From positions 19,186 to 83,185 of the forward strand of contig JBNGDI010000002.1 in assembly GCA_049975425.1 (NCBI GenBank): a DNA stretch of 64,000 nt. Direction: 5' to 3'. Shown here in pieces: positions 11,882-15,885 of the stretch. Made by a program: the position numbers and the translations under genes. Below the pieces are notes generated by a model. It was not told the DNA's origin and ran no database searches. It saw nothing but the letters and a program-made list of their open reading frames with translations. Each line of letters starts with the position of its first letter. Position 1 is the first letter of the stretch. Source of the DNA: Bacteroidales bacterium. Its GTDB lineage: Bacteria; Bacteroidota; Bacteroidia; Bacteroidales; VadinHA17.

Positions 11882-12862
11882 ATGAACACTTTATATCCGC
11901 TGAAATTCAAACCTATTCTGAAGGAAAGGATATGGGGCGGCAATCTCATGCAAGTTCGACTGCAGAAAAAGTTCAACGGTTTACAATCGGTCGGGGAAAG
12001 CTGGGAATGCTCGGGTGTTGATGGGAATTTTTCGGTTGTTGAAAACGGATTTCTGGCCGGCAACAATCTACAGGAACTGATCGGGGTATACATGGGAGAT
12101 TTGGTGGGTGAACGTATATTCAGTCATTACGGAATCCATTTCCCCCTTCTGATCAAGTTCATTGACGCCCGCGAGAACCTGTCGGTACAGGTTCACCCGG
12201 ACGACAAGCTGGCGGCTGAAAGGCACGGATCATTGGGGAAAACAGAAATGTGGTATATTATCGATGCCGTTCCCGGGGCAGTTATCTATACGGGATTCAA
12301 CCGCGAACTGGACCGGAAAACATTTCTTGAGTTTCTGAAAAACGGAAAACTCAAAGAAATTCTGAACCGGGAAGAAGCCCTGCCCGGCGATGTGTTTGAT
12401 ATCCCGGCCGGACGGGTACACGCCACGGGAGCCGGCATTCTGCTGGCTGAAATACAGCAGGCATCGGATATTACGTACAGAATCTATGACTGGGACCGGG
12501 TAGATGCACAGGGGAAAAGCCGTGATCTGCATATCAACCTTGCTCTGGATGCCATTAATTTCAAAAAGCCGGCCTCGTTCAAACATCATCCGCAGGGACC
12601 TGATAATGTGCCGGTAAAATTGTCAGCCAACAGTTATTTCCATGTTTCACGGCTGACATTGACCACCCCGTATGAAAGGGATTTTCACAGGCTTGACTCT
12701 TTCATGATTTATATGTGCCTGGATGGCCAGGTTACGTTCTATTTCCAGGGTGGAAAAGAAAATTTAAGCACCGGGGAAACAATCCTTGTTCCTGCCTCCC
12801 TTGAAACAGTAAACCTTGTACCCTCTCCTTCCACTACCCTGCTTGAAATATATCATCCCTGA
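11882..12862 (+). CDS. manA: mannose-6-phosphate isomerase, type I
   Basis: WGG, GESWE, PLLIKFIDA..LSVQVHPD, KTEMW, HA, EIQQ.SD.TYR.YD. Confidence 0.92.
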   Translation: MNTLYPLKFKPILKERIWGGNLMQVRLQKKFNGLQSVGESWECSGVDGNFSVVENGFLAGNNLQELIGVYMGDLVGERIFSHYGIHFPLLIKFIDARENLSVQVHPDDKLAAERHGSLGKTEMWYIIDAVPGAVIYTGFNRELDRKTFLEFLKNGKLKEILNREEALPGDVFDIPAGRVHATGAGILLAEIQQASDITYRIYDWDRVDAQGKSRDLHINLALDAINFKKPASFKHHPQGPDNVPVKLSANSYFHVSRLTLTTPYERDFHRLDSFMIYMCLDGQVTFYFQGGKENLSTGETILVPASLETVNLVPSPSTTLLEIYHP

Positions 12863-13013
12863 GAAATTTACCTCCTTCGAAAAGCATCGGAAAGGGAAAT
12901 ATTTCGTCCATACAATTACTTTTTGCAAAATATTTGTGATACATCGAATTACTTATTTGATATACAGCCTGTTACAAATATTCTTTCAGGAGTGTTTTTT
13001 TTCATGAAAAAAG

Positions 13014-13043
13014 GTTGTATAATTATTTTTTTTTCTAATATTG
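13014..13043 (+). promoter_or_regulatory. probable promoter of the polyamine operon
   Basis: GTTG (-33-like) and TAATATTG (one mismatch to TAnnTTTG) followed by CA. Confidence 0.45.
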
Positions 13044-13067
13044 CAACCCGAAAAAAGGAAAAACTGT

Positions 13068-13121
13068 ATGGGATTTACCAACAGCAAGGTCCCGCGCCAT
13101 TCACGATTCAGGCCTGATTAG
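13068..13121 (+). CDS. candidate leader peptide MGFTNSKVPRHSRFRPD
   Basis: ATG after an A-rich stretch just past the promoter; three Arg codons (CGC, CGA, AGG) near its end; overlaps a hairpin. Confidence 0.35.
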   Translation: MGFTNSKVPRHSRFRPD

Positions 13122-13159
13122 GTAGTGAATCGTGGAGCAGATATGTCGCATGGACCTGC
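13084..13159 (+). promoter_or_regulatory. structured 5' leader RNA (long imperfect hairpin)
   Basis: AGGTCC/GGACCT, GCG/CGC, CAT/ATG, CACGATTCA/TGAATCGTG and CCT/AGG nested stems. Confidence 0.55.
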
Positions 13160-13295
13160 CATTAAATTTCATGCCATGAAAAAATTTCATACATATCTGC
13201 TTCAGCGTAAAGTCCCGGTTCTTTACCTGTTTTCCTTTTTCAATCTTTTTGTACTTTACTCGTTACAGAGTACCTACCTGCCCCGCCGCATTTGA
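13143..13295 (+). CDS. second candidate uORF (50 aa; 39 aa from ATG 13176), ends YLPRRI
   Basis: Open frame 13143/13176 to TGA 13293-95; hydrophobic middle; may be non-coding. Confidence 0.25.
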   Translation: MSHGPAIKFHAMKKFHTYLLQRKVPVLYLFSFFNLFVLYSLQSTYLPRRI

Positions 13296-13397
13296 TGGAC
13301 TGATCCAGTGACGGCATCAACCTGTCTGCATCCAGCTTTCGGTTTCAGACAGGATTCTGAAATTATTTCAATCCATTACCCCAAAATTCTTACAATA

Positions 13398-13988
13398 ATG
13401 ATCACAAAAGTCAAAAAACAAAATATCATTGCCCGGGGCAGGAAATCCAGGGGCATTGTTATCGGGAACCGTATTCCCATGGATTATTTTGAAACCAGCG
13501 GCATCGGGCAGAGCGACATCACGGTACATGCCGGCTCATACCACCTGGCTCTGAAAGACGCCGGCATTGAGCAGTATAACATTATGACCTATTCCTCCAT
13601 ACTTCCGGGTATTGCCAGGAAGGTGGAAAAACCCGAAAAAATTGAGCACGGTTCCGTGGTGGAATCCATCATGGCGGTATGTACCAGCCAAAAAGGAGAA
13701 CGTGCCACGGCCGGCATCATTTACGGCTGGCTTTACGACAAATCCACCGGAAGCAAATTCGGAGGTCTGGTGTGTGAAAATTACGGAAATGAAACGGAAG
13801 AAGAGATCTCTCTGAAACTCCGTGCCAGTCTTGATGAATTGTATTACAACGGGTTTTCAGAAAAATACCTTCTCAAAGACATTCATACCATTACCCGAAG
13901 TTTTATTCCCGAAAAAACCCACGGGACAGCGCTGGTAGCCCTCTGTTTCACCAGCTATTATTATCCAATTATTGAAGGCGCGGCGTAA
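13398..13988 (+). CDS. pdaD: pyruvoyl-dependent arginine decarboxylase
   Basis: SYHLALKDAGIEQYNIMTYSSILP containing the Ser-Ser self-cleavage site; GLVCE; adjacent to agmatinase. Confidence 0.85.
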   Translation: MITKVKKQNIIARGRKSRGIVIGNRIPMDYFETSGIGQSDITVHAGSYHLALKDAGIEQYNIMTYSSILPGIARKVEKPEKIEHGSVVESIMAVCTSQKGERATAGIIYGWLYDKSTGSKFGGLVCENYGNETEEEISLKLRASLDELYYNGFSEKYLLKDIHTITRSFIPEKTHGTALVALCFTSYYYPIIEGAA

Positions 13989-14869
13989 TGAGCTTCATTT
14001 ACGGAGGTTTACCCGATTCTTATTCCCGGCCCGATTCCAGCAGAATCGTCATCCTTCCTGTGCCCTATGACGATACCAGCACCTGGATCAAAGGGGCTGA
14101 CAGGGGCCCTGACGCCATTTTGGAAGCATCGGCCAACATGGAACTGTACGATATTGATACCGATAGTGAAGTGTACCGGCTGGGCATTCATACGGCCCCG
14201 CCGCCCGGAGGGTTTCCTTCTCCTGAAGAAATGGTGAAAGAGGTTGAGAAATCTGTTGAATATTACATCCGGAAAGGAAAATTTGTTGTCACCCTGGGTG
14301 GGGAACATTCCATCAGTATCGGCTCCATCTTCGCACACGCAAAAGCACACGGGAACCTGACCGTTCTGCAAATCGATGCTCACGCCGATCTCCGGCAGGA
14401 ATACATGGGCAGCCGCTTCAATCATGCCTGTGTCATGGCACGTGCCCGCGAAGTGGCACACTGTGTGCAGGTTGGTATCAGAAGCATGGATGTCACTGAA
14501 AAGGAATTTGCCGAAAAATCTGATCTGTTTTTTGCAAGTGAAATCCATAAATTCCAGAAATGGCAGCAAAAAGTTATTGGAAGACTTCGGCAAAATGTTT
14601 ATATTACTTTCGATCTGGATGCACTGGACCCGTCAATCATGCCCAGTACAGGAACTCCCGAACCCGGCGGCCTGGGATGGTATGAGGTGCTGGATCTGAT
14701 AGGCATGGTGATTGAACAGAAAAACCTGGTGGGAATGGATGTAGTGGAATTATGCCCCAATCCCGCCAACCGGGCGCCTGATTTTCTGGCGGCCAAACTG
14801 ATCTACCAGACACTCTCCATGCGTTTTGCAGGAGAACTGTCACGGTTGAATAAAAACAATCCGTCATGA
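13988..14869 (+). CDS. speB: agmatinase (ureohydrolase)
   Basis: GGEHS, DAHAD, HAC, GIRS, DLDALDPS, GTPEPGG; TAATG coupling to pdaD. Confidence 0.92.
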   Translation: MSFIYGGLPDSYSRPDSSRIVILPVPYDDTSTWIKGADRGPDAILEASANMELYDIDTDSEVYRLGIHTAPPPGGFPSPEEMVKEVEKSVEYYIRKGKFVVTLGGEHSISIGSIFAHAKAHGNLTVLQIDAHADLRQEYMGSRFNHACVMARAREVAHCVQVGIRSMDVTEKEFAEKSDLFFASEIHKFQKWQQKVIGRLRQNVYITFDLDALDPSIMPSTGTPEPGGLGWYEVLDLIGMVIEQKNLVGMDVVELCPNPANRAPDFLAAKLIYQTLSMRFAGELSRLNKNNPS

Positions 14870-15885
14870 GTAAAAAGGAATTATTGAAAAACACAGTAGA
14901 ACACATCGACATAACCTCCTTTGATGCAAGGCCCATTATTGATGCCATGAGGAAAATGTCGTTTTCATCACGTGCCACGGCTCATGCCACCGATATTCTC
15001 AGCCGTATGATCAGGGATAAAAAATGTACCAGCATTCTGACCCTGGCCGGCAGCACCAGCGCAGGAGGCTGCATGCAGGTGTACGTGGATATGATCAAGA
15101 ACAATATGATTGATGTGGTCGTCGCCACCGGAGCTTCCATTGTGGATATGGATTTCTTTGAAGCACTGGGATTCAGGCACTACCAGGGAAGTATCCATGT
15201 CAATGACAGGCAGCTGAGAAATCTGTATATTGACAGGATTTACGATACATATATTGACGAAGACGAGTTGCAGGTATGTGACAATACCATCAAAGAAATT
15301 GCCGACAGCCTGGAACCGCGTCCTTACTCCTCACGCGAATTTATCCGCGAAATGGGTAAATACCTTGCAAAAAACAGCGTGAAAAAAAATTCTCTTGTGC
15401 AAACAGCCTACGAACAGGATGTTCCCGTTTTTTGTCCGGCATTCAGCGACAGCAGTGCAGGGTTCGGGCTGGTTATGCACCAGTGGGAAAATCCATCCCG
15501 GCATCTGTCCATCGACTCGGTAAAAGATTTTCTTGAGCTAACCCGCATCAAGATTGCTGCTGAAACAACCGGTCTGTTCATGATCGGCGGGGGTGTTCCG
15601 AAAAATTTTGCCCAGGATACGGTGGTCTGTGCAGAAATGCTTGGGAAACCGGCGCCCATGCATAAATATGCCGTTCAGATCACAGTGGCCGATGTACGCG
15701 ACGGAGCCTGTTCTTCTTCCACCCTGAAGGAAGCCTCTTCATGGGGCAAGGTAGACACCGTTTATGAGCAGATGGTTTATGCCGAAGCCACCACGGTTCT
15801 TCCTCTTATGGCCAGCTATCTCTATCATCAGGGAAACTGGCGTAAACGGCCGGTGCACCGTTGGAACAAACTTTTCGAACAATAA
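14866..15885 (+). CDS. deoxyhypusine synthase-like protein (probable homospermidine synthase, SpeY-like)
   Basis: DRIYD, PAFSDSS, GGGVPKNF, DGACSSSTLKEASSWGK with the catalytic Lys; ATGA overlap with speB. Confidence 0.88.
   Translation: MSKKELLKNTVEHIDITSFDARPIIDAMRKMSFSSRATAHATDILSRMIRDKKCTSILTLAGSTSAGGCMQVYVDMIKNNMIDVVVATGASIVDMDFFEALGFRHYQGSIHVNDRQLRNLYIDRIYDTYIDEDELQVCDNTIKEIADSLEPRPYSSREFIREMGKYLAKNSVKKNSLVQTAYEQDVPVFCPAFSDSSAGFGLVMHQWENPSRHLSIDSVKDFLELTRIKIAAETTGLFMIGGGVPKNFAQDTVVCAEMLGKPAPMHKYAVQITVADVRDGACSSSTLKEASSWGKVDTVYEQMVYAEATTVLPLMASYLYHQGNWRKRPVHRWNKLFEQ

Follow-up and report, generated by a model that had tools for sequence, protein, structure and literature searches.

Within the 64,000-nucleotide (nt) stretch of Bacteroidales bacterium DNA analyzed in this work (contig JBNGDI010000002.1, positions 19,186 to 83,185; hereafter, the window), three co-oriented, overlapping genes, pdaD, speB and speY, form an operon spanning positions 13398–15885 of the forward strand. 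The start of pdaD, which encodes a pyruvoyl arginine decarboxylase, is separated by a gap of 535 nt (12862 to 13398) from the end of a phosphomannose-isomerase-like gene. In the accessible part of a 2026 paper (PMC13625781), clusters of arginine decarboxylase (ADC), SpeB and SpeY are described as producing homospermidine, by a route in which two agmatine molecules yield a bis-guanidino intermediate that is subsequently hydrolyzed; for this reason, we regard the operon at 13398–15885 as polyamine biosynthetic. An original prediction, made from the sequence alone, had placed in this gap a long structured leader with arginine-containing upstream open reading frames (uORFs) and proposed that it senses arginine or polyamines as an attenuator or a riboswitch. 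All the features named in that prediction were found at the positions it gave or within a few bases of them. Most likely, the region 13036–13397 is transcribed as the leader of pdaD-speB-speY, the operon for the conversion of agmatine to homospermidine, and the functional core of this leader is most likely a translated leader ORF of 39 codons at 13176–13295, to which we refer as the conserved small open reading frame (sORF).

The sORF emerged from a comparison of regions upstream of pdaD, a check of peptide conservation that had been suggested along with the original prediction. The pdaD loci were collected by protein from 24 of 81 genomes of the family and 49 of 401 genomes of the order, with 17 further regions; another 47 loci came from a genome collection and 69 from metagenomes, and 185 were fetched in total. 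In what follows, G000 denotes the genome of the window, G001 is a genome of the same genus, and L numbers, as well as g1 and g6, are labels of comparison pdaD loci or groups. An ORF of 36–43 codons recurs on the pdaD strand and ends 81–220 nt before the pdaD ATG. Homologues of the sORF occur in 30 of the 185 loci, all of Bacteroidota type, and represent about 12 clades of one Bacteroidota order; the sORF is absent from all fetched loci named as Desulfobacterales, archaea or other non-Bacteroidota. Its length is exactly 39 codons in six clades. In G000, it corresponds to the second uORF of the original prediction (uORF2), which was described correctly: this ORF starts with the ATG at 13143, has 50 codons and ends with PRRI-TGA, the stop codon lying at 13293–13295. 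Position 13176 is its third in-frame ATG, and the conserved part of uORF2 is the portion that starts there. The C/U-rich tract that had been noted at about 13214–13262 is also present, inside uORF2.

The peptides encoded by the sORF family share a short core and a characteristic end. In an alignment of 19 peptides, the core reads F-[RK]-x-[FY]-[IV]-L, and a frequent C-terminal pattern is [IV]-R-x-[IV]-stop, with the variants IRLI, VRQI and KIRV, and with PRRI in G000. The basic position of the core, occupied by Arg or Lys in most members, is Asn in G000 and lies 16 residues before the C-terminus. The same position is found exactly 16 residues from the C-terminus in g1, L043, L095, L159, g6 and L168/L172/L174; this spacing holds despite differing N-terminal lengths and covers 8 of the 19 sequences in the alignment, from six clades on the G000 side, while the distance from the core to the stop is 13–21 residues in other members. 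Inspection by eye revealed no conserved transmembrane segment in these peptides. The G000 peptide contains an 18-residue hydrophobic run, VPVLYLFSFFNLFVLYSL, but charged residues occur at this place in L043, L159 and L168.

The substitution pattern of the sORF is that of a coding sequence. Five comparisons from four clades (L043–L095, L045–L046, L168–L172, L168–L174 and L179–L187) were used to calculate the ratio of non-synonymous to synonymous differences (pN/pS), which amounted to 0.41, 0.30, 0.36, 0.35 and 0.38 in frame and to 0.61–2.0 in the two other frames. Multi-base synonymous changes were also present (CGA/AGA, CTT/TTA and AGT/TCA, as well as TCG TTA to TCA CTT within the G000 genus). 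Non-synonymous sites of the sORF evolve 2–4 times faster than those of pdaD, which is typical of short regulatory peptides and not diagnostic of them, and in two genera, its synonymous sites have diverged less than those of pdaD (pS 0.07 vs. 0.13 and 0.04 vs. 0.21). ORFs of 34–45 codons located at −360 to −75 were found on the plus strand in 14 of 46 order-level loci, compared with 6 of 46 on the minus strand and a mean of 5.2 in shuffled regions.

Linkage of the sORF to pdaD appears to be strict. A profile built from the 19 peptides and searched in six frames against the 401 order-level genomes gave 13 matches at E ≤ 7.9e-8, all of them directly upstream of pdaD and on the same strand, while the next match (1.5e-4) contained stop codons; thus, no second copy of the sORF is present elsewhere in the searched genomes. 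The same profile, used against 401 class-level genomes, found only G000 at E ≤ 1e-5. No member of Pfam or NCBIfam matched the family at E ≤ 10, and in a collection of 5.8 billion proteins, only four predicted proteins matched it, one of them named 'hypothetical protein'; the sORF is therefore a gene that annotation has overlooked. Taken as a conserved and pdaD-specific ORF under selection, the sORF is very probably real.

In a midpoint-rooted tree of pdaD, most carriers of the sORF belong to one large clade, where they are mixed with the non-carriers L158, L165, L166, L171 and L175; the carriers L176 and L179, together with g6, fall outside this clade. Such a distribution fits co-inheritance with pdaD combined with repeated loss. 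No clear link was seen between the presence of the sORF and that of speY among the compared pdaD loci: speB and speY accompany pdaD in L158, L166, L173 and L175 with no recognizable sORF, and the sORF is present in L167, L176 and L049 with neither speB nor speY within 2 kb. L158 carries the closest pdaD outside the genus (72% identity); its leader of about 360 nt begins with the same bases as in G000 (TTTTTTTTAATATTGTACCCCGAAAAAA), and an ORF encoding MKSDVDFLYYLHKFR lies at the position of the sORF. Judged from this sequence, the sORF of L158 may have decayed.

The sORF is preceded by a conserved promoter-like element. In Bacteroidota, the consensus of the −7 box is TAnnTTTG. The promoter-like box placed at 13036–13043 by the original prediction is indeed present, and TAATATTG matches this consensus at 7 of 8 positions. 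All 19 of the examined sORF loci have a T-run followed by TAnnnTTGC 48–156 nt 5' of the sORF ATG, so that the box and the T-run, at comparable spacing to the sORF, are both kept in about 12 clades. This conservation supports the earlier promoter call and a transcription start site (TSS) near 13050; from the position of the box, a putative TSS at 13048–13051 is plausible. Just 5' of the box (12991–13035), only 2 of 45 positions changed within the genus. In many loci lacking the sORF, a canonical TAnnTTTG lies about 45–70 nt before the pdaD ATG. No canonical −7 box occurs between the sORF and pdaD in g1, g6, L043/L095/L159, L168–174, L176 or L179/L187, and pdaD in these loci would therefore need read-through from the distal promoter. 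A scan for sigma-70-type promoters gave three sites, with 2.4 expected, and this model is uninformative for the phylum. A second promoter-like string, TTTTTGCAAAATATTTG, lies within 12915–12935, about 110 nt 5' of the distal box, and is partly conserved within the genus.

Table 1. Features of the pdaD leader and operon in the window, with the positions changed within the genus (G000 vs. L090).
Feature	Position	Strand	Basis or remark	Changed positions
Far upstream				24/133
Distal promoter-like element: T-run, then TAATATTG (−7-type box, 13036–13043)	13024..13043	+	sequence reading; conserved in 19 sORF loci	0/8 (promoter box)
uORF1, 17 codons, MGFTNSKVPRHSRFRPD	13068..13121	+	translation; genus-specific	
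Hairpin P1, CACGATTCA (13102–13110) / TGAATCGTG (13126–13134), uORF1 stop in loop	13102..13134	+	minimum free energy (MFE) and centroid folds	
P1 stems				0/18
P1 apical part				4/15
Domain P2: helix 13135–13146 / 13191–13202 around two small hairpins	13135..13202	+	predicted fold	1/68 (A-U to G-U)
Conserved sORF, 39 codons and TGA, MKKFHTYLLQRKVPVLYLFSFFNLFVLYSLQSTYLPRRI	13176..13295	+	homologues before pdaD	4/120
Pyrimidine-rich, G-poor tract inside the sORF	13214..13262	+	composition	
sORF codons 21–27 (FFNLFVL), G000 version of the family core	13236..13256	+	peptide alignments	
Stem H1, TTGATG/CATCAA (13292–13297 / 13315–13320), includes the sORF stop codon	13292..13320	+	predicted	
3' half of H1	13296..13320		most variable part of the leader	8/25
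Hairpin H2, CCTGTCTG (13321–13328) / CAGACAGG (13346–13353), 17-nt loop	13321..13353	+	predicted	
H2 stems				0/16
H2 loop				6/17
Proximal conserved segment before the pdaD ATG (last 44 nt)	13354..13397	+	conserved within the genus	1/44
pdaD	13398..13988	+	Pfam PvlArgDC 2.6e-26	31/591
speB-type ureohydrolase gene	13988..14869	+	Pfam Arginase 7.5e-69	
speY, deoxyhypusine-synthase homologue	14866..15885	+	Pfam DS 1.8e-96	

Within the genus, the counts collected in Table 1 indicate that P1, P2, the sORF, the stem of H2 and the proximal segment are constrained, and that H1 is not. The claim that the leader is structured was borne out: the region 13045–13410 folds with a predicted free energy of −104.4 kcal/mol (z −5.29), and none of 100 shuffled sequences was equally stable. 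The signal is concentrated in 13050–13135 (z −3.7) and 13100–13215 (z −5.0), with weaker folds for the sORF alone (z −1.6), 13280–13400 (z −2.4) and 13290–13365 (z −1.3). Domain P2 itself reaches z −4.5 to −5.0, with none of 200 shuffles equally stable, and it is predicted to contain both candidate starts of the sORF, the ATG at 13143 in its 5' arm and that at 13176 in a small hairpin (AUGAAA/UUUCAU). The hairpin of about 75 nt described earlier survives in part, as its inner helix CACGATTCA/TGAATCGTG is P1, while the outer pairing AGGTCC/GGACCT appears in neither the MFE nor the centroid structure. Its 3' arm was said to pair with the start codon of uORF2; instead, that codon is located in the 5' arm of P2.

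These structures and uORF1 are confined to a narrow group. The sequences of P1 and P2 are limited to one genus; a DNA-level search for the leader among 41 relatives returned a full-length match only in G001 (95%), and eight others gave short AT-rich matches. No structure of the 5' untranslated region (5'UTR) conserved across clades was detected, and a helix equivalent to P2 was unsupported across clades. A conserved helix between a 5'UTR box and the early sORF codons was also considered and rejected as a family feature, since 1357 of 5000 permutations were as good as the cognate duplexes; only G000 stands out, with a duplex of −39.9 kcal/mol (rank 1). Searches of Rfam 15 over 12000–14500 at E ≤ 10 gave no plus-strand match in 13014–13397, and the five weak matches obtained over the whole region, to eukaryotic small nucleolar RNAs and microRNAs, are all far under the gathering scores. 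In ten related loci, searched at E ≤ 1, no leader matched any Rfam family, and a single weak match to MicX lies outside the leader. A purine-rich box (similar to GGTATA.AAGAGAGG or GGTATA.AAGAGAG) was seen by eye 35–55 nt before the sORF ATG in several clades (L043, L095, L159, L019–L022, L176, L045, L046 and L167), with no clear copy in G000.

The arginine-rich uORF1 is present as had been reported, with 3 Arg among its last 8 codons, but the regulatory role attributed to it is not upheld, as it is restricted to the genus; in other clades, its position is occupied by unrelated ORFs of 3–15 codons or by none. Within the genus, it shows 2 changes in 54 positions per comparison. The three substitutions are His to Asn and a change of AGG to CGG or AGA, in which Arg is kept, and they are too few for interpretation. 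In the G000 genus, initiation at the sORF would be gated by uORF1 and the P1/P2 structure, which are genus-specific. It is conceivable, as pure speculation, that translation of uORF1 opens P2 in a kind of relay.

Downstream of the sORF, both additional stems of the original prediction (H1 and H2) were recovered, and the first of them decays within the genus, where only GATG/CATC is kept. Hairpin H2 has no U-run and was not called as an intrinsic terminator. The proximal segment that follows resembles, by eye, a degenerate form of a widespread element that lies right before pdaD and consists of (A)GTATTAACCAAT, 6–10 nt and TTTTATG; the upstream ATG is missing in G000. This element occurs in 16 of 46 order-level loci, including L158, L159, L160, L165 and L168, and it has no entry in Rfam.

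The sORF can be compared with several known regulatory leader ORFs. As described in the accessible part of 10.1101/604074, SpeFL is encoded by a 34-codon leader ORF before speF, contains a conserved sensor motif in the middle of the peptide and arrests ribosomes at its stop codon, while a hairpin covers the 3' end of the ORF and a Rho utilization (rut) site overlaps it. Like SpeFL, which belongs to the speFL-speF-potE locus of Gammaproteobacteria, the sORF is short, co-oriented with and directly before a polyamine decarboxylase gene; at 39 codons, it also has a mid-peptide core, a predicted stem (H1) over its stop and a G-poor tract within the ORF. The SpeFL-like regulatory uORF proposed originally is thus a fitting description of uORF2, whose conserved part is pdaD-specific and carries the signature of a coding sequence, and not of the arginine-rich uORF1. 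Of the known systems, speFL-speF comes nearest in its logic. However, the HIRRXXH motif was found in none of the 19 aligned sORF peptides and there is no sequence likeness, so we reject membership of the SpeFL family, while the mode of action may be similar. The two systems also belong to different phyla and differ in the enzyme (pyruvoyl arginine decarboxylase here, pyridoxal phosphate-dependent ornithine decarboxylase there) and in the operon, which is biosynthetic for homospermidine here and acid- or ornithine-inducible in the case of SpeFL; moreover, H1 is not conserved even within the genus.

Another example is TnaC from the tnaCAB operon of Escherichia coli, for which the accessible parts of 10.1101/604074 and PMC8450073 describe a ligand-dependent arrest at a UGA stop codon that blocks Rho. 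The sORF likewise ends with TGA in 8 of 12 clades, a proportion not clearly above background; the peptides are unrelated, and tnaCAB is catabolic. In attenuation of the ErmCL type, the start of a downstream gene becomes accessible when a ribosome pauses on the leader ORF. L179/L187 share this anatomy, as the stretch just 3' of their sORF stop complements the start region of pdaD; unlike in that system, folding of G000 predicts a mostly unpaired pdaD start (0.76), the masking helix is limited to one clade, and antibiotics play no part. In eukaryotes, uORFs of polyamine genes (MAGDIS of AMD1, and the tiny and small uORFs of plant S-adenosylmethionine decarboxylase, SAMDC) set enzyme expression through peptide-dependent pausing. 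The tiny upstream ATG or mini-ORF that precedes pdaD in many relatives recalls the tiny-plus-small pair, but the eukaryotic mechanism relies on scanning, there is no homology, and G000 lacks a tiny upstream ATG. Finally, the family lacks the features of a classical amino-acid attenuator, as tandem Arg codons are limited to the G000 genus and no intrinsic terminator was called in 12700–13600.

The interpretation we prefer, to which we give an even chance, is that the sORF encodes a new cis-acting leader peptide of the arrest type that controls pdaD-speB-speY and resembles SpeFL and TnaC in action while being unrelated to them. We base it on the strict linkage to pdaD and the position between a conserved promoter and this gene, on the lack of conserved transmembrane or globular character, on conservation being concentrated in the C-terminus and in a core in the middle of the peptide, at a constant spacing from the stop, and on the precedent of SpeFL and TnaC. 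According to this model, the nascent peptide would act in cis within the ribosome tunnel as an arrest (sensor) peptide; the ribosome would pause at or near the sORF stop in response to a metabolite of the pathway (arginine, agmatine or homospermidine), and expression of the downstream genes would depend on this ribosome, whether paused or released. A wider proposal, which we hold only tentatively and consider somewhat doubtful, is that the sORF family constitutes an undescribed class of metabolite-sensing ribosome-arrest peptides in Bacteroidota, in which F-[RK]-x-[FY]-[IV]-L would lie near the tunnel constriction when the ribosome is at the stop codon and trap arginine, agmatine or homospermidine as a guanidino or polyamine ligand, tuning the agmatine/SpeY pathway, with read-outs diversified by clade between Rho access and start-site unmasking.

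The read-out may indeed differ among clades. In G000, it would consist in access of Rho to the G-poor, pyrimidine-rich RNA of the sORF and the spacer. The sORF contains 26% C, 13% G and 38% T; the largest C-minus-G window of 78 nt in the leader coincides with sORF positions +38 to +116, and C exceeds G in 15 of 17 sORF members. The pyrimidine-rich tract could, by its composition, serve as a Rho loading site. Rho-dependent attenuation is the favored downstream step in G000, because the start of pdaD is predicted to be accessible in any case, no terminator was called, rho is present in this genome (642.8 bits) and the C-over-G window lies in the sORF. The rho gene itself, at G000:C29:1376-3259, is an open frame of 643 amino acids, compared with 415 positions of the model, which implies a long extra segment. 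In L179/L187, the read-out would be unmasking of the pdaD start region. There, 10–12 nt beginning 5–7 nt after the sORF stop, TTTCCCATTT(T), are perfectly complementary to AAATGGGAAA, which is followed by TC and then by the pdaD ATG; between L179 and L187, this pairing differs by one compensatory change from U-A to G-U, and a stable hairpin lies between the arms. Such complementarity points to ErmC-like unmasking in that clade. In L168, L172 and L174, the spacer about 45–80 nt past the sORF stop contains a hairpin with a U-rich stretch behind it (seen by eye), and the hairpin arms differ yet stay complementary (GTAATTC/GAATTAC, AACTCC/GGAGTT and AATTTTCTC/GAGAATT); it may be a clade-specific terminator.

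Several observations weigh against the cis-acting leader peptide. A recognizable sORF is present in only 13 of the 49 pdaD-bearing genomes of the order sample, and in L158, the closest outgroup locus, the same promoter is followed by a long leader with an ORF of just 15 codons. All 13 strong profile matches are training members or nearly identical to them, and so they demonstrate specificity and not independent discovery. The preference for a TGA stop was dropped as unconvincing, since TGA ends the sORF in 8 of 12 clades and, as a background, 20 of the 51 long ORFs of the window. In L045/L046, L047 and L167, pdaD is separated from the sORF by a −7 box, canonical or near-canonical (TATATTTG or TATCTTTG), and the sORF could therefore be a separate transcription unit in these loci. 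As regards the downstream step, no intrinsic terminator was found in 12700–13600 (1.0 expected), and a hairpin over or after the sORF stop was rejected as a family feature, its z values ranging from −4.1 to +2.1 and being mostly about 0 relative to shuffles. When a ribosome footprint was masked at the sORF stop, an increase in the unpaired fraction at the pdaD start was limited to L179 (0.33 to 0.51) and L020 (0.22 to 0.51), with 0.76 to 0.79 in G000; start-site unmasking was thus rejected as a general mechanism and kept for the L179/L187 clade. Moreover, the C-over-G skew may simply follow from the codons for Phe, Leu, Ser and Tyr.

The alternatives to a cis-acting leader peptide differ in how much of this evidence they accommodate. 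The sORF might be an independent gene for a small protein of about 39 amino acids that acts in trans, by modulating, for instance, PdaD or a transporter, and is co-located with pdaD without controlling it in cis; we regard this as unlikely, though as a serious contender. A coding signature and conservation would fit any translated sORF, the 18-residue hydrophobic run of the G000 peptide would suit such a protein, and the main argument is the −7 box that separates the sORF from pdaD in L045/L046, L047 and L167. Nevertheless, no canonical box separates them in the G000 genus and in seven further loci or clades, and the sORF always lies on the pdaD strand, directly upstream with nothing between, and with no other copy in the 401 order-level and 401 class-level genomes. 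The hydrophobic run is not conserved, and the elevated non-synonymous rate, with conservation limited mainly to the short core and the C-terminus, also speaks against it. Improbable is the classical mechanism in which ribosome speed on the Arg codons of uORF1, or on those at the end of the sORF (CGC CGC, codons 37–38), reports arginyl-tRNA and sets downstream folding. The Arg content of uORF1, the retention of Arg in both genus changes at its AGG codon and the recurrence of Arg 2–3 positions before the sORF stop (IRLI, VRQI, PRRI, KIRV and IRL) are in line with it; however, uORF1 is not conserved beyond the genus, the tandem codons share this restriction, other members have one Arg close to the end or none (IILI in L095, KIVI in g6, as well as L176, L047, L049 and L153), and a terminator/antiterminator pair was looked for in the leader and not found.

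Slightly more improbable still is an element made of RNA alone, be it a riboswitch or a small RNA, in which the structured region 13050–13215 binds a ligand and the ORF is incidental. The very stable predicted structure (z −3.7 to −5.3), the lower pS of the sORF relative to pdaD in two genera and the recurrence of the purine-rich box in several clades are compatible with such an element. Nevertheless, the riboswitch of the original prediction gained no backing, as neither the leader nor its ten relatives match an Rfam family and no 5'UTR structure is conserved across clades; in addition, the frame-specific substitution pattern indicates that the peptide is selected, P1 and P2 are limited to one genus, 5'UTR:sORF duplexes between cognate partners do not surpass non-cognate ones in stability, and in L179/L187 just 48–50 nt, approximately, separate the promoter box from the sORF. 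The remaining explanation is that the gap is a decayed intergenic region whose ORFs and hairpins arose by chance. ORFs of similar size do arise in this way, as the shuffled regions and the opposite strand illustrate, but homologous peptides under purifying selection across about 12 clades and within-genus conservation above that of the flanks make a lack of function highly improbable, and it is already contradicted by the pN/pS values, the profile specificity and the genus footprint.

Bacterial leader peptides known to sense metabolites are very few in number and include TnaC and SpeFL, and Bacteroidota are unusual in their translation initiation. A full-text search of the literature, with subscription-only papers and closed supplements outside its scope, revealed neither an account of a leader ORF ahead of pdaD nor one of an arrest peptide from Bacteroidetes. 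A conserved, pdaD-specific leader ORF offers a concrete and cheap test system, which could reveal how nascent peptides sense small molecules and how the agmatine/SpeY route to homospermidine, as presented in the accessible part of PMC13625781, is regulated.

Additional features were noted immediately upstream of pdaD in other loci. Of the 46 order-level loci, 21 have a further ATG upstream, at −9, −10 or −13 relative to that of pdaD, compared with 10 of 414 control windows, and other loci carry mini-ORFs of the form ATG-NNN-stop or ATG-stop just before pdaD. A different conserved block, GGATTTTTTATG-N8-AAGGGGAAC-N-GGGAGTG, precedes pdaD in another set of loci (L052, L054–L060, L064, L067, L068, L096–L105, L107 and L112), for which the names given, where there are any, are Desulfobacterales, Desulfobacteraceae, Desulfatibacillum or delta proteobacterium. 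In the loci with this GGATTTTTTATG block, an out-of-frame upstream ATG lies about 25 nt before the assumed pdaD start.

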